From a virus (Duplodnaviria; Heunggongvirae; Uroviricota; Caudoviricetes): a DNA stretch of 36,398 bases. Location of the stretch: IMG/VR virus record IMGVR_UViG_2869965101_000006; one strand, written 5' to 3'. Below, piece by piece: positions 1 through 36,398 of the stretch; positions within the stretch are counted from its first letter, which is position 1, and the number at the start of each line of letters is the position of its first letter. A program made the translations under genes and the position numbers. The notes beneath the pieces are model-generated. The model saw only the letters and a list, made by a program, of their open reading frames with translations. It was not told the DNA's origin and did no database searches.

Positions 1-61
1 GGTATCCGTTCTGCTGAAGTGTCATGGCGTTGATTTTACGGTGACTCTTCGACAGTGAAAA

Positions 62-83
62 GAAAAAAGGCCGCAGAGCGGCC
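62..83 (-). terminator. putative rho-independent terminator ending the int-orf120-orf146 unit
   Basis: GC stem ggccgc/gcggcc (69..83) preceded on the plus strand by an A-run (62..68), i.e. a U-tract after the stem on the minus strand; lies downstream of the 209..649 ORF. Confidence 0.45.
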
Positions 84-208: not shown

Positions 209-649
209 TTACTTAATAACAGTAACCACAGCCACAAGCACGGCCATCGCAGACAGGACAATACCTGTGAGTAACCAAGTCTGATTTGCAAATGATTTCT
301 GAAGTTCAGTACGATGCTCAGCCATCTCAACTTTCAGAGACTGGCGTAAATCAGCCATCTCAGACTTCAGGGATTGGCGCGATTCTGCCATCTCAAGCCT
401 CAACCCTTCGCGAATCTCCAGTACATCAGATTTGGTAGCAAAGGATTCGCTTCTTGTAGTGAGAGTAATCAGGTTGTTTTTGATTTCAGTCACATCACTT
501 TCCAGGCAACTGACCCGCCGTTCAAGGTCGTCATTCATGCCATCACCTCCATCATTACCACTTCCTGTTACTTGGTTGTTGGATACATTATAGGCATTCT
601 CTTTCTTTTTTCTGAACCGCGAAATATGTGCAACATTCTCTGCCATCAC
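209..649 (-). CDS. hypothetical membrane-anchored coiled-coil protein (146 aa)
   Basis: ORF start overlaps the stop of the upstream ORF; polar Gly/Asp-rich N-terminus, three 11-residue repeats (SLKSEMADLRQ-like) and a C-terminal hydrophobic helix (LLTGIVLSAMAVLVAVVTVI). Confidence 0.5.
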   Translation of the reverse strand: MMAENVAHISRFRKKKENAYNVSNNQVTGSGNDGGDGMNDDLERRVSCLESDVTEIKNNLITLTTRSESFATKSDVLEIREGLRLEMAESRQSLKSEMADLRQSLKVEMAEHRTELQKSFANQTWLLTGIVLSAMAVLVAVVTVIK

Positions 650-1008
650 TTCTCATCACCCTGCTTGCCTACCCAGTTCATAAAGGCCCGGGCCGAGTAA
701 CGATGAACAAACCCACATCTGTTACAGGTAAGTCGGAATTCATAGTTATGGATATTTTCCCGATCATGTCCCTCATATCCCGGATACCCAGTAAATGGAC
801 CGATGTAATCAAGCATAACAAAAGTGCCTAAATCACACTCCTCAGCAGTTTTCGGCTCAGGCCCCACCTCAACAATATTCGTCAAATACATGTACATATC
901 CGTATCGCCACACGACAAACATTTTTCATTCGTAGACGACTCATTGAGAAAACGCGCAAAATTATCGAGCGTTGCCATTCTTTTAAGTTCATCTAAATGA
1001 AACTTCAC
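646..1008 (-). CDS. hypothetical protein with two Cys pairs (CLSCG...CNRCG), possible zinc ribbon (120 aa)
   Basis: ORF with GTG start 2 nt after the int stop and stop overlapping the next ORF start; no family recognised. Confidence 0.45.
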   Translation of the reverse strand: MKFHLDELKRMATLDNFARFLNESSTNEKCLSCGDTDMYMYLTNIVEVGPEPKTAEECDLGTFVMLDYIGPFTGYPGYEGHDRENIHNYEFRLTCNRCGFVHRYSARAFMNWVGKQGDEK

Positions 1009-1010
1009 TC

Positions 1011-1988
1011 TTAAGCACCTCCTAGTGGATTAAACCTCACCGCATCCTGCAGGTAATCCGGCGCAAGATGGGCATAAATCATCGTTGTCTGAATCTTTGC
1101 GTGCCCCAGAATTTTCTGGAGCGTCAGAATATTGCCGCCGTTCATCATGAAATGACTGGCGAAGGTGTGGTGCAGCGCATGAACAGCCTGGCCGTCAGGA
1201 ACATCAGGTGCGACCGTTTTGATGACATCGCGAACCAATGAATAATCCAGCGTCGGAAACACCAGTTTCCCGCCCCGTTTTTTGATCTTTTCAAACAGGC
1301 TTTCAGAAATAGGAACGGTACGGTTTTTGCTGTTCTTCGTTTTTGAAAAAGTGATTCGACAATGAAGAACACGGCGCTGCTCCAGTGCCGCTACCTCGCC
1401 CCATCGCGCCCCGGTCGACAGAAGGATTTCGACAGCCAGTCGTTCATCGGGATTTTCAGCCAGTGCATCCAGCAACTGAACACATTCAGACTTACTCAGA
1501 TATCCCATTTCGCGCTCCTTAACCTTCATTCCTTTAAGGCCTTGAACGGGGTTATCGTTAAGAAAATGGCCGGATGAGATGAGTGCGGTAAACATCGCGC
1601 TTAACGCCCCAATCTCTCGATTTATGGTGCTGGGCTGTATCCCCTGCTCTATCCTGGACACACGTAGCTCGGTGAGCATCGTTGTATTAAGTTTATGCAC
1701 GCACGGGTCATCCATTGCTTCACTCAAGCGCAGCAATTTAAGGCGCGTGTTATGCCCTGACTTCATTAGCTGGCCGTGGTATTTCCACCACAAGTCAATA
1801 AGCACTGACAGAGGACGGCGATCAATAGAGTTTCCTTTCCACTCATTGTTATGCTGTTGCGCCAGCACCCACCGCTCATATAAAACTGCATCCGATTTCG
1901 TTTTAAATTTTTTGCGAATGCGTTTGCCTTTACGCCCCTCAGGGCACATGTCAAGAAGATACCCTCCCAGAATTGATTTTATGCTCAT
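1011..1988 (-). CDS. int: P2-type tyrosine integrase
   Basis: Start taken at internal Met (MSIKSILGG...) so as not to overlap the repressor; recalled similarity to P2 Int along the whole length, including the C-terminal HALHHTFAS...GHAKIQTTMIYAHL catalytic region. Confidence 0.9.
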   Translation of the reverse strand: MSIKSILGGYLLDMCPEGRKGKRIRKKFKTKSDAVLYERWVLAQQHNNEWKGNSIDRRPLSVLIDLWWKYHGQLMKSGHNTRLKLLRLSEAMDDPCVHKLNTTMLTELRVSRIEQGIQPSTINREIGALSAMFTALISSGHFLNDNPVQGLKGMKVKEREMGYLSKSECVQLLDALAENPDERLAVEILLSTGARWGEVAALEQRRVLHCRITFSKTKNSKNRTVPISESLFEKIKKRGGKLVFPTLDYSLVRDVIKTVAPDVPDGQAVHALHHTFASHFMMNGGNILTLQKILGHAKIQTTMIYAHLAPDYLQDAVRFNPLGGA

Positions 1989-2037
1989 TCGTGAAACCCC
2001 AGCGTTACAAGACCACCATGCCCCCAGCGTTCTATGA

Positions 2038-2346
2038 TTAGCCGGGCTGTGTACCAGTCTTGCGGGATTTTTGAGAAGACGATGTGTTTTCTGGCCCATC
2101 AGGGGAGAGAGAGGGACTGATCTGCCCAGCAGCCTCATTTGTTTTTCCCGTCATAAGCCAATTCATGTACTTAAAAAAGCGAGGGTGATTAACAATCTTG
2201 ATAAGCACTTCGCCCCCTATGTTTTCAATCCGCCCCGTTTCATAACGACGCAAAGTGCCGATAGGCACATCAATCAGGCCGCAAAATTCTTCGCGCGTTA
2301 AATCCTCTGATTCACGAATCACTCTAATTTTTTCACCGATAAGCAT
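2038..2346 (-). CDS. C: P2 C-type immunity repressor
   Basis: About 100 aa, divergent from cox; HTH-like N-terminus and a C-terminus (SSSQKSRKTG) resembling P2 C; start chosen at internal Met. Confidence 0.7.
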   Translation of the reverse strand: MLIGEKIRVIRESEDLTREEFCGLIDVPIGTLRRYETGRIENIGGEVLIKIVNHPRFFKYMNWLMTGKTNEAAGQISPSLSPDGPENTSSSQKSRKTGTQPG

Positions 2347-26905: not shown

Positions 26906-28089
26906 CAGGCACCTCCCAGCACCGCAAATGCGGGTTCAAAGTATTCATCAGTAAACGTCTGGTAAAGCTCCATGTCTTCCAGTGGCGGAACGGGCGTATA
27001 TTTGTAGCGAATACGCACACGTCCCTGACGTAAATCCGTGGTGCTGTTATCCACCACGTCATACCAGCACTCCGCGCCAATCAGTTTCCCGGCAGTCACC
27101 AGTGAATCCAGTTTTGCCCTGATGGCACTGATAACATCCTTCACATTCGCAGGCGTCAGTGGACTGTCGATGGTTTCAAACTGCGCTTCCGCAATTGAAT
27201 CAGCCAGCACCTGTGCGGTTCGGGTATACACCTCAAAGATGTAGGCGTTCGTTTCCGGTGTGCGGTTACCCCAGAAGCGGACCCCGTTGCGACGAATAAT
27301 GGTCGTGATTTCTTTGTTGTTGAGGCTGTTGGCATCGCTGTCTTCGGCCTGCAACGACCAGAACACATGCCTCGACATCCCCAGCACATTTTTAACCGGA
27401 ACGTTGGACAGCGATTTGTGCCATCCCTGTTCATGGTCAATGTACGCACGAAGGCCGCACGCATAGGCAGGCGCGGGGAACGTTTCGTTTTTGCCATTTT
27501 TCGGGTTGTAGGCGATGAAGTCCGGCCATAAGAGCATCACCTCACGTTCGTTGAATTTCTGGCGGTAGGTAATTGCCTCGGCCATCGTGTTACAGCCATG
27601 ACATGAGGCATACACAAACGCGCGCAGTTTATCTGCAATCACGCACAGGGATTTTGTTACCGCCTCCGTGTCCAGCTCCGGCGCGGCCAGAATACGCGGA
27701 CGGTATCCGATGCTTTCATCCTGCTCTGCAACAAGCAGCGCATACATCCCCGTATAGCTGCCGTCATCCTCAGAACCACCGATAACCAGTTGATCCTGCG
27801 TCTTTCCGTCTTCTTCTTTGTGTTCAGCCACGCGAACGACGATCACCTTTGTGCTCACCTGGTCTGCGATGGCCTTAAGCGCACGATAAAGCGTCCCCGT
27901 TGTCCCGCATTTTCCCAGCACGTCATTGACGCGGGTCAGCAGTGTGGGCTTGTTCAGCGGGAACAGCTTCGCGTCCGCATCATCCGCCGTTGCCACGATA
28001 CCGATAACGCTGGAATCAACATCGTTAATCGCTGTTACCAGGTCGGTATTCTCCGTAACACGGGCACCATGAAAACGAGTTTCACTCAT
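26905..28089 (-). CDS. tail sheath protein (P2 FI-like)
   Basis: 394-aa intact ORF with sheath-like sequence. Confidence 0.85.
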   Translation of the reverse strand: MSETRFHGARVTENTDLVTAINDVDSSVIGIVATADDADAKLFPLNKPTLLTRVNDVLGKCGTTGTLYRALKAIADQVSTKVIVVRVAEHKEEDGKTQDQLVIGGSEDDGSYTGMYALLVAEQDESIGYRPRILAAPELDTEAVTKSLCVIADKLRAFVYASCHGCNTMAEAITYRQKFNEREVMLLWPDFIAYNPKNGKNETFPAPAYACGLRAYIDHEQGWHKSLSNVPVKNVLGMSRHVFWSLQAEDSDANSLNNKEITTIIRRNGVRFWGNRTPETNAYIFEVYTRTAQVLADSIAEAQFETIDSPLTPANVKDVISAIRAKLDSLVTAGKLIGAECWYDVVDNSTTDLRQGRVRIRYKYTPVPPLEDMELYQTFTDEYFEPAFAVLGGA

Positions 28090-28246
28090 AGCTTCAGCCC
28101 CTTGTATCCGTTAAATGATTCAGCAACAATCATCACCCACCACGCGCGTAATCTCACCCCTGCGCCGTTCTCCCGCCACGGCGACAACAAAAAGCAGTAA
28201 CCCCCTCCGCACGCACATGCGACCATGCCGCACAGGGAGGGAGTAG

Positions 28247-29356
28247 ATGACCGACACCACCATGCAATTGCTCAGTCAGGGCACGGCCCCCGTGAAAATG
28301 CCGGATTTTGATATTCTCTCGGAGGGTAAAACGCTGTCAGGCGTGGCGGAGCGCCTGATGAGCCTGTAACTGACCGACAACCGGGGATTTGAGGCGGACC
28401 AGCTCACCATCACGCTGGATGATGCGGATGGTCAGTTGCAGCTACCGCCACGGGGCGCGCGTCTGACGGTTCTCATTGGCTGGAAAGGGGAACCGCTGAC
28501 AGAAAAAGGCACTTACATTGTTGATGAAATCGCTCACGAAGGACCGCCGGACAGGCTGACTGTTTCAGCCAGAAGCGCAGATTTTCGGGATGAATTTAAC
28601 GTTAAACGTGAGGTGTCCTGGCATGATGTGACCGTTGAGCGTGTGGTATCCGCCATCGCTCATCGATACGGTCTGAAACCGCAAATCAGCGAAATGCTGA
28701 TGGATATCGAAATCGACCACGCCGACCAGACCGAAGAAAGCGACATGTCCTTTCTTACGCGCATGGCGGAAATGCTGGGAGCAATCGCCACGGTAAAAAG
28801 CGGCAATCTGTTATTCATCATGCCAGGTGGTGGCGTGAACGCACAGGGGCAGCCGTTGCCCTCGTTCGCCATTACACGCAGCAGCGGCGATCGCCATCAG
28901 TTCCGCATTGCTGACCGCGAGGCGTATACGGGGGTACGCGCCTACTGGCTTGATCTTAATTACGGGAAAAAGAAAAAAGTCAGCGTGAAACGCCGCAAAC
29001 CGCCAAAACCCAAAAAGGAGAAAAGCAGCAGTCGGGAAGGCGACTATATGGAAGGTGCGGAAGGCAACGTGTTTGTGTTACGCAAGACTTATCAGAACGA
29101 GCAGGCAGCAAGACGCGCAGCGGCGGCAAAGTGGCAGCAGCTACAACGCGGAGCCGCATCATTCTCCATCACGCTGGCGCGTGGTCGTGCAGAACTCTAT
29201 CCCGAAATGCATGGCACAGTGACAGGCTTTAAAAGCGAGATTGATTATCAGGACTGGATTATTGCAAAAGCCGAGCACACCATTGATAACAGCGGCTTTA
29301 CCACGCAGCTTGAACTTGAAGCAAAAATCCCGGAATGGATAGCAGAAACAGAATAA
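28247..29356 (+). pseudogene. tail protein D (P2 D-like) with in-frame TAA
   Basis: ATG at 28247 after a GGGAGGGAG RBS; in-frame TAA at 28367..28369 inside the conserved …LTDNRGFEADQL… motif; the rest (28436..29356) is open. Confidence 0.75.
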
Positions 29357-29508
29357 ATCTCTTAAAAATATTATTTTTGAGATGTGCTTCTACACTGACA
29401 GTAAGAACAAAAGATAATGTATCAGCCCACTAGATGTCAGAGGTTGGGGCATCAACCAGATGCTAACAATAATACGGATGTTTTTCCCACATGACAGAGG
29501 AAGTCAAG

Positions 29509-29514
29509 TATAAT
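29509..29514 (+). promoter_or_regulatory. candidate -10 element (TATAAT) for the cargo ORF
   Basis: Perfect TATAAT about 90 nt upstream of the 29605 start in an AT-rich intergenic region; no convincing -35. Confidence 0.3.
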
Positions 29515-29604
29515 CTTCACAGTCCATCCCGTCCAAGGGAATATGACTCAATAGTAAAAGTTCCAGTTTAGTTAGTAGACCCACACTTTATAGAAGAGTA
29601 ATTC

Positions 29605-32600
29605 ATGATTGGACAATTTTTAAGTGCAACAGAGATTTTAGCAAAGAACTATGTTCGTAATAAAATGGTTAAAAATCCATTTTATTCGAATTTAAAATGG
29701 AATTTTATTGAAAAAAACATCATAAGATTAACATCCTCACCGGTTAAATCAGTACTTTGCATATCAGCTTTTTCATTTGTACTACTTTATGTTGGATATT
29801 TAAACGAATTATTTATAAAAAATAATCTTTTACATTATTTCCCGTTTAGGCATTCATTAACCGAATGGCAAACAACCATTTTAAGTGGCCAATTGACAAT
29901 TATTGGTATTGTATACCCCCTTGTTATAGGTTTAGTAAGTATCTTATTCCAAAAAAAGGCAGATAGAAAAATAGCCCAAACTGCTTATCAGCGTTACTCA
30001 GGATTCATGCTTGCTGGACTCAGCGGGCTTTTCTTATCAGGATTTATACTTCTCAGTGTACTAATTAAAACTGTCTTTGGAAGTTATCTTTATGGTATAG
30101 CTTGTCTAATCAGCATATTATGGCTTTTGATAAACATAGTTCTTTCTATTTGGTTCTTTATCGTGAGTCTTGAAATTCTTGATGATGTAAAACGGCAAAT
30201 AATTATAAAGCGATACATTGCCTTCGAAATAGTAATGCCCCATATTTGTAACAAAATCTCAGCCAAGCTTAGGTTATACCCTATCTATCAAAAACATAAC
30301 TATTCAAATTTAGAAATCAAGCAAGCCGATTACAAAGGAGAATACATATCTGTGGCTAGCAGTTATTCTAAGGAAGATGAGTTAAGTTTATATCACCGTC
30401 CTTTTCAACTTACTCTTAATCTTATTAATTACCAACTAAAAAAGAAGAATCATTTTGCGTCATTTGTCATTGGTGATAATCGTACAAAAGAAACAGAATC
30501 CACGGGTAAGATACTTTTTAGCGTTAAAAATATCAAACCAGACAGCTTATTAATAAAAATACTTAAGCAATGTTTTTATAGGGCTCCGATTAAAGGAGGA
30601 GATTTTTCCGTAAGTCTTACAATGCAGGCTATAACAGCAGATACGTATATGTATCTGCGGGATTCTGATCTCATTAGTTTTGACAATGCTATCTCTGCAT
30701 TAATTAATAACTTTAATAATCTCTGCGATTTGTATTTTTTTCAAGATGATAATACCAACAATAACTTCTTACTGATCACTACAGAATTATTTGAACGGAG
30801 TTTTCAATATGAGTTTTCAGATGAAGTTTATAAAATATCAAATAATTCCATGGATAAAATTAATCTTTCTGAAAGATTTTTTGAATTATGTCTTTGGAGC
30901 GGAGTGCGTATTATCAATAATAGAAAACATCTTATCAGCAATGAACTTTGTATCTATATGGGAATTACTCGTTCACAATGGTCAATATTAACAGAATGGT
31001 TCCGAAACAACCAATCACTCTTAAATGCCTCGCTTCGTTCACGTTATAATCGTATATTAAGAACCTATACCACTGTTTGGGAGCAATATCAAGAAAGCAT
31101 AAACTTTCGTTTCTGCAATACAGAGAATTCAGATTTATTTGAATTATTTTGCAAAACGCAACTACAAGAACTTCCATCGATGATTATTGATGCAACACAG
31201 ACTCGCGATCCTTCTACTATTGATACAGCCGTCGATCTTATTAACCGATGGCAGCACTCAATGAATATTGACAGCCATTCGGTAGAAAAATACAGTTACA
31301 AAGGCCAGCTTTTTAACCCGGGTTTTTTCATATCCAAAAAACTAAACTTCAATTCAGACAGAGAGTGGTTCAATATTGCCATCATAAATGCGTTGACTGA
31401 CATGCGTATATGCACATGTCTTTATCTGACATCAAGAATCAATACTTCTGACAAACTAATGACACATTACATTAAACTTATTTTAGAGGGTAAACTTATT
31501 GACCAAACCGGTGGATATGAAACTCCCACTGAAGAAATTGATAATGCAAGCCAACTAATCAAGATATTAATTAGAATCTGCCTGTGGACATGGTCTGAAA
31601 ATATGGAACACAATGGGTGGATGAATAGTTTAGCAAGGCGTTTACGTGACTATGATAAAACAGACATGGTGATGGGCAGAGTTTACAGTAATGTTTTTGA
31701 CTGTGGATTTATTGATATGGAACAATCATGGGTTCAGCTATTATTAATTTTTTCTAACAAGAACGATAGCGTATCAAAAGAAATAAAAGAAGCAATAGAA
31801 AACAACTATATAACATATCGTGAGAAGCAACGACTCATTGGAGTATTATCAAAAATTTGTAACTCCATCGAATACACTAAAATCAAGCTGACTTTAACAT
31901 TGGACGATCTCCAAACAAAAAAAGAAAACTTAAGAAAGTTGCTTCAAGAGCATATTAACATGCTAAAGAAAGATCTTGATATGAGACTTCAGGATGCTGC
32001 CATAGATGTACATCGACTAGATAGCACTGCACGTAAAACATCAGAACATCTTCGTAAACGCATCAAGAAAACGCTCCCTCTTTCACTTTTTAAATCTATT
32101 GATTTTAAGCAGGCTAGCGATTGTTTCACAAAACATAAGATATCTATTAAGATAGATAAAGAACCGTATGCCGAAGGAATAGAATCCATCCCTTATATCA
32201 ATGAAGGTGATATTCAAGCAGACTTAATTCTCAAGGACATCCAGAGAATAATACTTTCAAATTTATTTAGCACTGGCTGTTCGCAACATACCGTAATAGA
32301 AGATTTCAATATGTTGATTGATCACATAAAATCATCTGCTGACTTGGCTGGCAAACTGGTTCTTGTGATGAGTAAAGAGATCTTTCAGCAATATAATCGT
32401 ATGCTTTTCGATAATCCCAACCTCAGAGAACTAATGAGAAAAAATGATGATGGCTCTATGAACATAACTACTGAATCCGGTACCCGTAAGGTTTACTTCT
32501 TACCATTTGTTAATCAACCATTTTCTCTTGTGGTAAAGGATAACTACTTCACTAAATTAATTATTAGAGAATATGATAATAATAAGTTAGTAAATGTCAC

Positions 32601-32724
32601 TTCAGAGAATATCAAAAGTGACTCAGATAAATTCAAGCTAACTCTTAACTATGAGTTGAATGTAGTATTTGAAGGAAACGCTGATTTAAAAATAGCTCAC
32701 TCGCAAAGAGTGACATCAGAATAA
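29605..32724 (+). CDS. large hypothetical membrane-anchored protein (1039 aa), AT-rich cargo gene
   Basis: Uninterrupted ORF; four hydrophobic helices in the first ~190 aa then ~850 aa of Asn/Lys/Ile-rich soluble sequence; no Walker A, HxH or other obvious catalytic motif by eye. Confidence 0.75.
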   Translation: MIGQFLSATEILAKNYVRNKMVKNPFYSNLKWNFIEKNIIRLTSSPVKSVLCISAFSFVLLYVGYLNELFIKNNLLHYFPFRHSLTEWQTTILSGQLTIIGIVYPLVIGLVSILFQKKADRKIAQTAYQRYSGFMLAGLSGLFLSGFILLSVLIKTVFGSYLYGIACLISILWLLINIVLSIWFFIVSLEILDDVKRQIIIKRYIAFEIVMPHICNKISAKLRLYPIYQKHNYSNLEIKQADYKGEYISVASSYSKEDELSLYHRPFQLTLNLINYQLKKKNHFASFVIGDNRTKETESTGKILFSVKNIKPDSLLIKILKQCFYRAPIKGGDFSVSLTMQAITADTYMYLRDSDLISFDNAISALINNFNNLCDLYFFQDDNTNNNFLLITTELFERSFQYEFSDEVYKISNNSMDKINLSERFFELCLWSGVRIINNRKHLISNELCIYMGITRSQWSILTEWFRNNQSLLNASLRSRYNRILRTYTTVWEQYQESINFRFCNTENSDLFELFCKTQLQELPSMIIDATQTRDPSTIDTAVDLINRWQHSMNIDSHSVEKYSYKGQLFNPGFFISKKLNFNSDREWFNIAIINALTDMRICTCLYLTSRINTSDKLMTHYIKLILEGKLIDQTGGYETPTEEIDNASQLIKILIRICLWTWSENMEHNGWMNSLARRLRDYDKTDMVMGRVYSNVFDCGFIDMEQSWVQLLLIFSNKNDSVSKEIKEAIENNYITYREKQRLIGVLSKICNSIEYTKIKLTLTLDDLQTKKENLRKLLQEHINMLKKDLDMRLQDAAIDVHRLDSTARKTSEHLRKRIKKTLPLSLFKSIDFKQASDCFTKHKISIKIDKEPYAEGIESIPYINEGDIQADLILKDIQRIILSNLFSTGCSQHTVIEDFNMLIDHIKSSADLAGKLVLVMSKEIFQQYNRMLFDNPNLRELMRKNDDGSMNITTESGTRKVYFLPFVNQPFSLVVKDNYFTKLIIREYDNNKLVNVTSENIKSDSDKFKLTLNYELNVVFEGNADLKIAHSQRVTSE

Positions 32725-32732
32725 TATCTTTG

Positions 32733-32763
32733 ACGGCGCTCCTTAGAGTGCCGTTCGTTTATT
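32733..32763 (+). terminator. rho-independent terminator after the cargo ORF
   Basis: Stem ACGGCGCTC / GAGTGCCGT (one G-U pair), 4-nt loop, then TCGTTTATT. Confidence 0.5.
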
Positions 32764-32859
32764 AACTAATGCTAAAAATCATTATATAGAGAAAGTCATG
32801 TTTAAATCTTAGAGAATACAACCTAGAATAGTGCAAGCACTACAATAAGAGAGGTCGCT

Positions 32860-33096
32860 ATGTTCCGTTGTCCGCTTTGTGGCGCATCTGCCCGTATCCG
32901 CACCAGTCGTCCGGAAAATGATTCAAACACCGTGAGACAAAAGTATTATCAGTGTAACAATCTAGAATGCGGCGTATGTTTCTCAACACTGGAAGCCTTC
33001 CACAAATTCACTTCAAAGCACGCCTCCCCCATTCACTCATCAGAGGGCATCCCGTTGGATTTGCCCCTATATTTCCAGACATCTGTTATCACTTAA
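32860..33096 (+). pseudogene. ogr: late-gene activator ogr, 3' end replaced by the IS2 insertion
   Basis: MFRCPLCGASARIRTSR…YYQCNNLECGVCFS zinc-finger N-terminus like P2 Ogr; from codon 66 the frame is IS2 sequence; original 3' end at 34388..34452. Confidence 0.8.
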
Positions 33097-33972
33097 CCCA
33101 TTACAAGCCCGCTGCCGCAGATATTCCCGTGGCGAGCGATAACCCAGCGCACTATGCGGATGCCATTCGTTATAATGCTCGAACGCCTCTGCAAGGTTCT
33201 TTGCTGCCGTTAACCCGTCTGGTTTGGGCATGATACTGATGTAGTCACGCTTTATCGTTTTCACGAAGCTCTCTGCTATTCCGTTACTCTCCGGACTCCG
33301 CACCGCCGTGTTCTTCGGTTCAAGTCCCAACATCCGGGCGAACTGGCGTGTTTCATTAGCCCGGTAGCATGAACCATTATCCGTCAGCCACTCCACTGGA
33401 GACGACGGAAGATCGTTGCCGAAGCGGCGTTCCACCGCTCCCAGCATGACGTCCTGTACTGTTTCACTGTTGAAGCCGCCGGTAGTCACCGCCCAGTGCA
33501 GTGCCTCACGATCACAGCAGTCCAGCGCGAACGTGACACGCAGTCTCTCTCCGTTATCACAGCAGAACTCGAACCCGTCAGAGCACCATCGCTGATTGCT
33601 TTCTTTCACGGCCACTCTGCCTGTATGTGCCCGTTTCGATGGCGGTACAGCAGGTTTTCGCTCAAGCAACAGGGCATTCTGGCGCATGATCCGGTAAACA
33701 CGTTTGGCATTGATCGCAGGCATACCATCAAGTTCTGCCTGTCTGCGAAGCAGCGCCCATACCCGACGATAACCATACGTGGGCAGCTCTCCGATAACAT
33801 GGTGTATACGGAGAAGCACATCCGTATCATCAGTGTGACGACTGCGGCGGCCATCCATCCAGTCATCGGTTCGTCTGAGAATGACGTGCAACTGCGCACG
33901 CGACACCCGGAGACAACGGCTGACTAAGCTTACTCCCCATCCCCGGGCAATAAGGGCGCGTGCGCTATCCAC
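33067..33972 (-). CDS. insD: IS2 InsD (OrfB, DDE transposase)
   Basis: 301-aa ORF; its 3' end is the sequence duplicated in the remnant at 3580..3844. Confidence 0.85.
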
Positions 33973-34336
33973 TTTTTTGCCCGTCCATATTCAACGGCTT
34001 CTTTGAGGAGTTCATTTTCCATCGTTTTCTTGCCGAGCAGGCGCTGGAGTTCTTTAATCTGCTTCATGGCGGCAGCAAGTTCAGAGGCAGGAACAACCTG
34101 TTCTCCGGCGGCCACAGCAGTAAGACTTCCTTCCTGGTATTGCTTACGCCAGAGAAATAACTGGCTGCTACACCATGTTGCCGGGCAACGAGGGAGACCG
34201 TCATCCCCGGTTCAAAGCTCTGCTGAACAATTGCGATCTTTTCCTGTGTGGTACGCCGTCTGCGTTTCTCCGGCCCTAAGACATCAATCATCTGTACTCC
34301 AATGACTAGTCTAAAAACTAGTATTAAGACTATCAC
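33930..34336 (-). pseudogene. insC: IS2 insC (orfA) with internal frameshift
   Basis: orfA is split into two overlapping ORFs (34064..34336 and 33930..34115) in different frames. Confidence 0.6.
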
Positions 34337-34642
34337 TTATTTAAGTGATACTGGTTGTCTGGAGATTCAGGGGGCCAGTCTACCCGTGGCATGAACTGCC
34401 AACTTCACACAGAGGAAACAATCAGATGAGTTTGCCCTTACCTCAGAATTAACGAGCAGAATTGCCGGAGTAACAAAAAAGCGATAGATTACGCGCGGGT
34501 GCCTTTCGGCTGATGGTCGGAGGGAATACCTGAAGGCCAGATGTGGAAAGGCCCCGGAAAACATTTTTGTTTAACCGAGGCCCTAACCGTCTACCCTAAG
34601 CAAGTGATAGGTTAGCGCCTCCCCGAAAAAGGAGCAAGCGCT

Positions 34643-34783
34643 ATGTCGCAAAAATCGCTTACGGCCATCACGTTCTGCGTGACGGCAATCCTCATCATCT
34701 GGATGCTGCACGGTTCGCTGTGCGAAATACGGATGAGCTTCTGGGGAGCGGAGTTTGCGGCGTTCTTACAGTGTAAGCAGTAA
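34643..34783 (+). CDS. Hok/Gef-family type I toxin (46 aa)
   Basis: AAAAAGGAG RBS; small hydrophobic peptide with the family signature …SLCEIR…EFAAFLQCK. Confidence 0.6.
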   Translation: MSQKSLTAITFCVTAILIIWMLHGSLCEIRMSFWGAEFAAFLQCKQ

Positions 34784-34870
34784 GGAAACCGCGACGGGGG
34801 AGCAATCCCCCGTCAATCGGTTGCCAGGGTAAGGTCGATAAGGCACCCTATCTCACAGACATGAACAACA

Positions 34871-34905
34871 AACCCGCAGCGTAAAAACTGCGGGGTTTCT
34901 TTTTG
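34871..34905 (+). terminator. rho-independent terminator downstream of the hok-like gene
   Basis: Stem CCCGCAG / CTGCGGG with 8-nt loop, followed by GTTTCTTTTT. Confidence 0.6.
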
Positions 34906-35201
34906 GTGTCCTCACCGACTTGAAACAGTGATCAGACTATAAGACAAAGCCCACAATGTAGCGGGCTTACTCCCGTTACTTTATTCGTACCCCTTATAAT
35001 GGGGTGTTAGCCAGCCAGACCCGGCATGATTACTGCCCCCAGTCGTCCATGATCCGGGGGGTGATGTCACCGGGTCTGGTGGGGCGCTGGTAACCGCTAA
35101 TAGGGGTCAGGTCAGGCATTTTTGCCGGGACCGTCTGTAACGTGGATGCCGGTACCTGCTCCCCGTGGTTATCTGGTTAACCCATATACAAGGGAGACAG
35201 A
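34906..35201 (+). ncRNA. candidate left-end non-coding region of an IS110-family element (possible bridge/guide RNA)
   Basis: About 300 bp without an ORF immediately upstream of an IS110-family recombinase gene; boundaries not determined. Confidence 0.3.
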
Positions 35202-36398
35202 ATGACCGAATCCAGCGATTACGAATCCGTCCAGGTCTTTATCGGCGTTGATGTCGGTAAAGATACGCATCACGCTGTTGCCATTAATCGTTCAGGTAAA
35301 CGCCTGTTCGATAAAGCATTACCCAACGACGAAAACAAACTCAGGTCGCTAATATCTGACCTGAAACAACATGGTCAGATACTGCTGGTTGTTGATCAGC
35401 CAGCTACCATCGGTGCGTTACCTGTCGCCGTTGCCCGCTCAGAAGGAGTCCTTGTCGGATACCTCCCTGGACTGGCCATGCGCCGCATAGCCGACTTACA
35501 CGCCGGTGAAGCTAAAACTGATGCTCGTGACGCTGCCATCATTGCCGAAGCTGCCCGTACCCTGCCTCACGCGCTACGCACGCTGAAACTGGCTGACGAG
35601 CAAATCGCCGAACTCTCCATGCTCTGCGGCTTCGATGATGATCTTGCCGCACAGACAACGCAGGCCAGCAACCGTATCCGCGGCCTTCTGACCCAGATAC
35701 ATCCGGCACTGGAGCGCGTTCTCGGTCCGAGACTTGAGCACCCGGCGGTACTCGATCTTCTCCAGCGATATCCCTCACCAGAAAAACTCGCTTCGCTGGG
35801 TGAGAAGAAGCTGGCAGCCCAGCTCTGCAAACTTGCGCCTCGTCTGGGTAAACGCCTTGCAGCAGACATAGCTCAGGCACTGGCCGAACAAACCGTCGTC
35901 GTTCCCGGCACGAATGCCGCTGCCGTAGTACTGCCACGTCTGGCACTCCAGCTCATCACGCTGCGTAAGCAAAGAGACGAGGTGGCGCTTGAGGTAGAAC
36001 AGCGAGTTCTTGCTCACCCTCTTTACCCGGTCCTGACCAGTATGCCCGGAGTCGGTGTCAGGACCGCAGCCAGACTCCTCACCGAGGTCGCCTGCCGCGC
36101 CTTCGCCTCTGCCGCACATCTCGCTGCTTATGCTGGCCTTGCGCCGGTAACTCGGCGATCCGGCTCGTCAATACGCGGTGAGCATCCCTCGCGACGGGGT
36201 AATAAAGCTCTCAAACGGGCGTTGTTCCTGTCGGCCTTCGCCGCGCTCAGGGATCCGCTCTCCAGGGCTTACTACACCCGCAAAATGAGTCAGGGAAAAC
36301 GACACAATCAGGCGCTTATCGCCCTGGCGAGACGACGCTGCGACGTTCTGTTCGCCATGATGCGCGACGGGACTTTTTATACCCCGCAGGGGTCATAA
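35202..36398 (+). CDS. IS110-family (DEDD) transposase/recombinase
   Basis: 398-aa ORF; N-terminal FIGVDVGKDTHH RuvC-like motif and C-terminal …SMPGVGVRTAARLL… region; GGAGACAG RBS; stop coincides with the window end. Confidence 0.8.
   Translation: MTESSDYESVQVFIGVDVGKDTHHAVAINRSGKRLFDKALPNDENKLRSLISDLKQHGQILLVVDQPATIGALPVAVARSEGVLVGYLPGLAMRRIADLHAGEAKTDARDAAIIAEAARTLPHALRTLKLADEQIAELSMLCGFDDDLAAQTTQASNRIRGLLTQIHPALERVLGPRLEHPAVLDLLQRYPSPEKLASLGEKKLAAQLCKLAPRLGKRLAADIAQALAEQTVVVPGTNAAAVVLPRLALQLITLRKQRDEVALEVEQRVLAHPLYPVLTSMPGVGVRTAARLLTEVACRAFASAAHLAAYAGLAPVTRRSGSSIRGEHPSRRGNKALKRALFLSAFAALRDPLSRAYYTRKMSQGKRHNQALIALARRRCDVLFAMMRDGTFYTPQGS

Follow-up and report, generated by a model that had tools for sequence, protein, structure and literature searches.

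The right-hand end of the window, i.e., the whole 36,398-nucleotide stretch of viral DNA analyzed here (IMG/VR record IMGVR_UViG_2869965101_000006), raises the question of whether a short open reading frame located there belongs to an intact toxin-antitoxin system and whether this system is part of the prophage or of the DNA beyond it. An earlier note, made from the sequence alone, described a Hok-family type I toxin locus just outside the prophage end, expected an overlapping mok frame and an antisense Sok RNA within the ~200 bp upstream of the toxin gene, and suggested that flanking insertion sequences might perturb its regulation. The analysis presented here indicates, at a probability of roughly 0.85, that the locus is an intact hok/sok type I toxin-antitoxin cassette, carried as an att-proximal accessory gene (or 'moron') by a P88-like, P2-family prophage located in the ihfA terminator.

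The toxin gene and its product

The 46-aa frame is present exactly where the earlier note had placed it:

34643..34783, plus strand: hok toxin gene, 46 aa (Pfam PF01848; protein WP_000078916.1)

Its product, MSQKSLTAITFCVTAILIIWMLHGSLCEIRMSFWGAEFAAFLQCKQ, fits the family pattern of ~50 residues with an N-terminal hydrophobic helix, an LCE[IV]R Cys-Glu motif and an E-x-AAF tail. The Hok/Gef signature that had been read by eye was borne out by a profile search, in which Pfam HOK_GEF (PF01848) matched residues 7-44 with 29.9 bits (E 4e-7; curated gathering score 22 bits), and PHROG 251 ('MokW-like host killing') matched with an E value of 1e-22. The ribosome site (GGAG at 34631..34634, with the ATG 8 nt further on) and the downstream terminator (stem 34873..34894, T-tract to ~34903) were likewise found as described. 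The peptide is identical to WP_000078916.1, which is found across E. coli under the RefSeq name 'Hok/Gef family protein', and this allele is recorded on at least 1000 contigs. Fourteen residues, including C27, E28, A39, A40 and C44, are invariant in 20 subfamily members, and dN/dS values of 0.10-0.37 against divergent alleles point to purifying selection. Judged by its sequence, the 46-residue peptide is a member of the Hok/Gef family, the gene of which is already annotated in RefSeq and in phage records.

Some sources call WP_000078916.1 'HokA'. The NCBIfam HokA equivalog NF007290 is the best NCBIfam model for the peptide, yet its score of 34 bits falls under the cut-off of 89, and the peptide is therefore placed, on these profile scores, in a Hok branch separate from HokA. 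The NCBIfam Hok model is also under its own cut-off, and PADLOC returned no model match for the peptide.

Alleles and limits of the cassette

Matches to the 581-bp hok locus were found in 1547 of 5426 complete E. coli genomes. Alignment-based searches retrieved six loci from the genome collection and 80 loci from the viral collection, all 80 of which encode the identical Hok protein; allele diversity was obtained by looking up divergent proteins one at a time. The resulting set comprises 47 distinct cassette alleles, 70-100% identical, from E. coli and Salmonella P2-like prophages at several att sites, a lambdoid prophage end, a plasmid and Salmonella tandem arrays. Across these alleles homology begins at the -10 element of the hok promoter (TAGATT/TAGAAT) and stops at the fold-back box or the terminator, the sequences further upstream being unrelated between contexts, and these shared limits define a self-contained, autonomous cassette of ~440 bp (34462..34903).

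The tandem arrays, on Salmonella enterica contigs L102..L105 (e.g., L104 2501..3987), consist of two to three head-to-tail hok cassettes located ~500-700 bp apart, each copy of which has its own leader and terminator. A copy with 82% identity to the cassette is found in Stx2a phages, and in the Stx-type phage Lyz12581Vzw (Sepvirinae) it adjoins lom (L004, 2521..2929). The identity of this Stx-phage relative with the characterized hokW was considered and ruled out, since the peptide differs: HokW is 51 aa long and the primer used for its cloning encodes MKQQKAM (PMC8621323). The 82% copy appears to be separate from the characterized hokW-sokW locus, and Stx2-converting phages may thus hold two different hok systems.

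The hok mRNA and its alternative folds

The following elements were assigned to the toxin mRNA, column numbers being those of the allele alignment:

34462..34490, plus strand: predicted hok promoter, -35 TTGCCG (34462..34467), 17-nt spacer, -10 TAGATT (34485..34490) (sequence reading and allele conservation)
34497..34903, plus strand: hok mRNA, 407 nt, with a putative 5' end at GGGUGCC and running to the T-tract (allele homology limits; RF01794 position 1 = 34497)
34497..34511, plus strand: tac-like 5' element GGGUGCCUUUCGGCU (partner 34833..34848 in the full-length RNA, 34545..34555 once the 3' end is trimmed in silico)
34545..34555, plus strand: ucb-like box GGAAAGGCCCC, alternative partner of the 5' end (columns 1-14/49-61)
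34613..34642, plus strand: hairpin sequestering the hok Shine-Dalgarno sequence (UAGCGCCUCC...GGAGCAAGCGCUA; columns 127-132/153-158)
34792..34815, plus strand: stable 3'-UTR hairpin just past the stop codon (columns 314-322/329-338, five compensatory pairs)
34833..34848, plus strand: fbi-like 3' element GGUCGAUAAGGCACCC, partner of the 5' end (columns 1-7/369-375 and 10-14/360-365)
34873..34903, plus strand: intrinsic terminator, stem 34873..34894 and T-tract to ~34903 (compensatory changes in the stem, helix 16)

The predicted hok promoter agrees with the consensus at 8 of 12 positions, and almost every allele retains its -10 element (TAGATT/TAGAAT), at 6-7 nt from the GGGTGCC that follows. 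A promoter scanner with a threshold of 9 of 12 consensus positions reported no promoter on either strand, the proposed hok and Sok promoters (for the latter, see below) both being under this threshold; both are predicted from homology and conservation, their match to the consensus being weak.

The 407-nt RNA of the window is predicted to fold with an MFE of -174.5 kcal/mol (z = -6.6), in a structure that contains the helix between the 5' and 3' ends and a closed ribosome site. When the consensus structure of the 47 alleles was derived by RNAalifold and its pairs were counted, 97.8% of alignment cells were found to be paired, as opposed to 35-44% when the partners were slid, and 22 consensus pairs were changed on both sides; such compensatory base changes maintain three RNA helices. 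The fold-back helices that join the 5' and 3' ends are paired in 97-98% of cells. In columns 1-7/369-375 (the GGGUGCC/GGCACCC core) the substitutions of the 3' element are wobble-compatible transitions, and broken pairs come only from alleles with a different 5' end, while in columns 10-14/360-365 all five pairs are changed on both sides. The helix between the 5' end and the internal box (columns 1-14/49-61) is paired in 95.1% of cells, compared with 35-61% when slid, with compensatory changes at columns 10/53 and 11/52 in 13 alleles each. Columns 10 and 11 consequently covary with both partners, i.e., the 3' box and the internal box; coupled covariation of this sort has reportedly been described for hok mRNAs by Gultyaev and colleagues.

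Deletion of the 3' box in silico caused the 5' end to re-pair with 34545..34555 and the leader to open, although the hok ribosome site was still closed. The hairpin that hides this site is paired in 99.6% of cells, where changes are one-sided only and pairing is kept, and the unpaired probability of the ribosome site is predicted to be 0.02-0.04 in full-length and trimmed RNA alike. These comparisons show for the hok mRNA the R1-type architecture, with alternative 5' pairings of which both helices covary.

A predicted Sok-like antisense RNA

Two elements were assigned to the opposite strand of the leader:

34545..34601, minus strand: predicted Sok-like antisense RNA, ~57 nt (inferred ends, from ~34601 to ~34545)
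34609..34637, minus strand: predicted Sok promoter, -35 TTGCTC (34637..34632), 17-nt spacer, -10 TAACCT (34614..34609) (allele conservation)

The predicted RNA consists of a 5' single-stranded tail (the complement of 34584..34601), a hairpin (the complement of 34550..34583) and a UUU tail. Its promoter elements read TTGCTC/TTTACT-17-TAACCT/TATCCT across the alleles, with the 17-nt spacing conserved, and the -35 element overlaps the hok ribosome site. The window promoter and the variant TATCCT resemble the R1 Sok promoter (TTGCGC-17-TATCCT), and the reverse complement of these hexamers is contained in the sequence of the R1-type locus. Alignment with hokC, hokB and the R1-type locus places the predicted Sok at the same position relative to the hok ATG as the annotated sokC and sokB.

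The antisense strand of this region folds more stably than the sense strand, both in the window (-25.6 versus -19.9 kcal/mol) and in all 17 distinct alleles (means of -20.6 versus -13.4 kcal/mol), because G-U pairs on the former correspond to C-A mismatches on the latter. The stem of the hairpin has undergone a compensatory G-C to A-U change (columns 56/94). The most variable part of the cassette among the 47 alleles is the complement of the Sok 5' tail (34584..34601; columns 96-118 of alignment A2); this hypervariable stretch opens exactly at the predicted Sok 5' end, and the promoter and hairpin on either side of it are conserved. This is the pattern expected if recognition specificity diverges, avoiding cross-talk between copies. 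The promoter, the strand asymmetry, the compensatory change and the homology of position together lead us to infer a cis-encoded Sok-like RNA of ~57 nt, although conservation of its -10 element could alternatively be explained by mRNA helices that use the same bases.

The Rfam model RF01794 ('sok') matches 34497..34656 on the plus strand over its full length, with 46 bits (E 1e-8), which falls short of the gathering score of 59 bits. Subfamily relatives score 38-42 bits, as compared with 87-118 for K-12 hokC, hokB and the R1-type locus (87 for the latter). At the K-12 and R1-type loci the match lies on the hok strand and extends from the 5' end of the mRNA as far as the ATG of hok, with sokC and sokB inside it on the opposite strand. 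By this comparison RF01794 is a marker of the hok leader, and the window branch is a divergent relative below threshold, which is probably why RefSeq annotates no ncRNA at the hok locus.

Leader reading frames and the missing mok

Of the elements that the earlier note had expected in the upstream ~200 bp, the hok-leader elements and a Sok-like antisense gene were recovered (RF01794 at 34497..34656, below the gathering score), and alignment with known hok loci located the Sok promoter and the fold-back elements. The overlapping mok frame was not: no frame that crosses the hok start begins with ATG, GTG or TTG in the window, and neither a mok frame nor a leader ORF is conserved across the alleles compared. 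Frames that initiate upstream and reach hok are present in some alleles and absent in others, the latter including the P88, Stx-phage and most Salmonella-type alleles. A 3-codon GTG mini-ORF at 34604 was considered as a conserved leader frame and rejected, as it is also not conserved.

The window allele does possess one candidate for an allele-specific mok substitute:

34541..34615, plus strand: leader ORF of 24 codons in the hok frame, stop TAG at 34613..34615

This ORF lies almost entirely within the Sok-complementary stretch without overlapping hok, and its stop codon supplies the first three nucleotides of the hairpin in which the hok ribosome site is hidden. Removal of the 3' fold-back raises the predicted unpaired probability of its AUG from 0.08 to 0.55-0.66. 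The leader ORF could replace mok via a termination-coupled opening of the ribosome-site hairpin; its ATG is missing in Salmonella-type alleles, and its frame and end differ among E. coli alleles, so that this coupling role is held as a hypothesis only.

Against the proposed mechanism stands the fact that, without mok, Sok would have to block hok translation by pairing 30-100 nt upstream. It is possible, though in our view rather doubtful, that the 46-aa branch works without mok altogether, with Sok repressing at a distance (either because RNase III triggers decay, or because a ribosome standby or leader-ORF site is blocked), and that divergence of the Sok 5' tail insulates co-resident or tandem copies from one another.

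Location of the cassette within the prophage

The position of the cassette relative to the prophage ends was derived from the following elements:

58..83, no strand assigned: attL core, i.e., ihfA terminator sequence, GAAA(A)GAAAAAAGGCCGCAGAGCGGCC (window 1..83 = K-12 btuC-ihfA intergenic sequence)
32860..33055, plus strand: ogr codons 1-65, interrupted by IS2 (remaining codons at 34388..34452)
33056..34382, minus strand: IS2 in ogr, 5-bp target duplication CCCGT (terminal inverted repeat read in the sequence)
34975..36398, plus strand: IS110-family element, transposase gene from 35202, which runs off the window (alignment to an IS-free copy)

Positions 1..83 of the window represent K-12 btuC-proximal intergenic sequence as far as the ihfA terminator (GAAAAGAAAAAAGGCCGCAGAGCGGCC), and K-12 has no prophage between btuC and ihfA. 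An IS-free copy of the prophage, in E. coli VG38-53E1, is collinear with window 27051..33055 (99.4% identity) and 34383..34974 (100%), the two alignment blocks overlapping by the 5 bp of the IS2 target duplication. In this IS-free copy the att core recurs ~260 bp 3' of the hok stop codon, and the prophage thus spans from attL at 58..83 to an attR beyond hok. The gene order tail sheath, gpD-like, variable cargo, ogr, hok, ihfA and pheT is found in both VG38-53E1 and O26:H11 11368, and the order gpD-ogr-hok-ihfA is common to E. coli and Salmonella. Deposited records of the P2-like phages P88, Chuche and P884B11 (genus Xuanwuvirus) contain the same cassette. The hok cassette therefore lies between ogr and attR as the last gene of a P88-like (P2-family) prophage, and the earlier placement of the locus just outside the prophage end has to be abandoned. 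A search of the literature returned nothing specific on hok in P2-like phages.

The presence of insertion sequences on both sides had been described correctly. IS2 ends at 34382, i.e., 260 bp before the hok ATG and 80 bp upstream of the hok -35 element, and the IS110-family element starts at 34975, which is 192 bp after the hok stop codon, 72 bp after the terminator T-tract and ~70 bp short of the attR position in IS-free copies. Both insertions fall outside the conserved promoter-to-terminator cassette, and at this locus IS-free prophages agree with window 34383..34974 at 100% identity; for this reason the cassette is, as judged by sequence, left intact by both elements, and the suggestion that they perturb its regulation is not upheld. 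Among the complete E. coli genomes of the collection, none has the same arrangement of IS2 and IS110. The interruption of ogr after codon 65 means that the prophage is probably without full-length Ogr, its late-gene activator.

In the IS2 copy, which measures 1327 bp, the first gene (IS2 TnpA/InsC) is split: the ORF at 34064..34336 covers only positions 1-45 of a 121-position profile, and the rest is apparently in another frame at 33930..34115, so the element is probably frameshifted. The IS110-family (RNA-guided) transposase element is inserted just past a hairpin at 34947..34968 in the right end of the prophage. IS110-family elements encode a guide ('bridge') RNA in the non-coding stretch that precedes the transposase gene; here this stretch comprises ~227 nt, in which Rfam returned no significant match.

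Other cargo was observed at both ends of the prophage. Between the gpD-like tail gene (28436..29356) and ogr lies an ORF of 1039 aa (29605..32724, plus strand), which had zero matches in Pfam, NCBIfam and PADLOC, and which carries the RefSeq label 'MFS transporter' at its position in the 99.4%-identical copy. In O26:H11 11368 the same slot contains hxsDBCA, and these different contents identify the gpD-ogr interval as a variable cargo slot, occupied here by an uncharacterized large protein; its identity with the published P2 defense hotspot was ruled out, as the latter is located between gpA and gpQ. At the opposite prophage end, two ORFs of 146 and 120 aa without a Pfam match (209..1008, minus strand) lie between attL and the integrase gene (1011..2138) and represent a second att-proximal cargo position.

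The Rfam sRNA STnc540 (171.6 bits; L093, 2795..2992, minus strand) is located in Salmonella on the ihfA 3' region, where it directly adjoins the end of a P2-like prophage that carries the hok cassette. As the sRNA abuts the prophage end, the phage att site may be located at or within the 3' end of STnc540, which is also the ihfA terminator.

Proposed mode of action and alternative explanations

Allele comparison indicates that the weak promoter of the cassette would yield a 407-nt hok mRNA, that this mRNA would be locked by pairing of its 5' end with the box near the 3' end, and that a local hairpin would conceal the hok ribosome-binding site. By extension from the hok/sok paradigm and the predicted folds, slow 3' trimming would strip away the fold-back partner, upon which the freed 5' end would pair with the internal box and the leader would open. 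The short and unstable Sok-like RNA would then bind the opened leader, leading to inactivation and decay of the message. Should the supply of Sok stop, possibly because the prophage is lost or because an infecting lytic phage shuts off transcription, the stable mRNA pool would be translated and the 46-aa membrane peptide would depolarize and kill the cell; in the window allele, the 24-codon leader ORF may supply translational coupling.

The most likely role of such a cassette would be prophage addiction and/or abortive infection to the advantage of the prophage. This role is favored because plasmids carry the cassette, as do unrelated prophages at their att-proximal end, and because R1 hok/sok has been reported to exclude T4; no anti-phage or addiction phenotype is known for the 46-aa Hok subfamily. 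The main functional rival, which we regard as unlikely without dismissing it, is that the cassette chiefly aids lysis of the prophage, with Sok falling and Hok rising in lytic development so that lysis is faster and more phages are released. A precedent exists in hokW-sokW of the Stx2 prophage Sp5, which raises phage release ~two-fold after mitomycin C (PMC8621323), and the 82%-identical cassette copy occurs in Stx2a phages, although HokW belongs to a different Hok branch (51 aa, MKQQKAM...). Furthermore, no terminator-like site was found between hok and ogr, the late-gene activator in P2, and ogr transcription may thus read into hok. Against this stands the presence of the cassette on plasmids and in tandem chromosomal arrays, which have no lysis programme. 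Moreover, P2-like prophages are essentially non-inducible by DNA damage.

It is a good deal less probable that hok is neither expressed nor toxic and is a mere passive passenger of the prophage, as has been proposed for most chromosomal hok loci of K-12. The host prophage is indeed damaged (IS2 in ogr and an IS110-family element near attR), the promoters are weak, and K-12 hokA and hokC are inactivated by insertion sequences; yet the cassette itself is untouched by either element, and the signals of selection, i.e., the dN/dS of 0.1-0.37, the 14 invariant residues and the compensatory changes that keep three RNA helices, make a silent relic unlikely, as does the recovery of the peptide allele on at least 1000 contigs and of the locus in 1547 of the 5426 genomes. 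Marginally more improbable again is control of hok by mRNA folding only, or by a trans-acting RNA from elsewhere, with no cis-encoded Sok. The absence of an ncRNA from RefSeq, the RF01794 score under the gathering threshold and the constraint that mRNA helices and the hok ribosome site place on the putative Sok promoter bases are compatible with such control; it is opposed by the antisense-strand hairpin being the stronger in 17 of 17 alleles, by the conserved 17-nt spacing of -35 and -10, by the start of the hypervariable stretch exactly at the predicted Sok 5' end, and by the position shared with sokB and sokC.

Comparison with known systems and significance

The hok/sok cassette proposed here is of a kind already known, i.e., textbook hok/sok. 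With hok/sok (parB) of plasmid R1, to which flm, srnB and pnd are related, it shares a peptide with SLCEIR and E-x-AAF motifs (31 aligned residues, 39% identity), an mRNA of ~400 nt whose 5' element alternates between a 3' box and an internal box, an antisense gene at the same leader position with a promoter resembling that of R1 Sok, and a hairpin past the stop codon followed by a terminator. It differs from R1 in that the peptide is 46 rather than 52 aa long, with C44 as a second invariant cysteine in the window branch, and in that this branch has no conserved mok frame overlapping hok, a Sok target closer to the hok ribosome site and a lower score with the Rfam leader model (46 bits in the window versus 87 at the R1-type locus); in addition, the window cassette is prophage-borne whereas that of R1 is plasmid-borne. 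The closest K-12 paralogue, within the hokA-E set of Pedersen and Gerdes, is hokA (43% identity, including the AAFL-x-CK tail), which, in contrast to the window cassette with its insertion sequences outside, is disrupted by IS150 abutting mokA; IS186 similarly abuts K-12 hokC. The hokW-sokW system (Takada et al. 2021, PMC8621323) resembles that of the window in being a prophage-borne type I system of the same PHROG, but the window peptide of 46 aa starts with MSQKSL and HokW has 51 aa. The antitoxins of the type I systems tisB/istR-1 and zorO/orzO pair at a long distance upstream of the ribosome site (reviewed in PMC4147584), and if no leader ORF is used the window Sok would similarly act at a distance, 30-100 nt upstream of a closed site; this is a mechanistic analogy only, as these systems have no sequence relationship to the window locus.

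The only mildly new features are that no mok frame is conserved, that C44 is a second invariant cysteine and that the antisense gene has no annotation; beyond its correct annotation, the locus is of slight significance. Since the locus is part of the prophage, the right boundary of the latter belongs beyond hok, at the att core in the ihfA terminator. Because they fall below the Rfam threshold, the antisense RNA and the mRNA elements of the branch lack annotation in no fewer than 1500 of the complete E. coli genomes that were searched. Finally, as a branch without a conserved mok, the 46-aa Hok subfamily would provide a handy natural case for studying how Sok represses hok without the textbook coupling.
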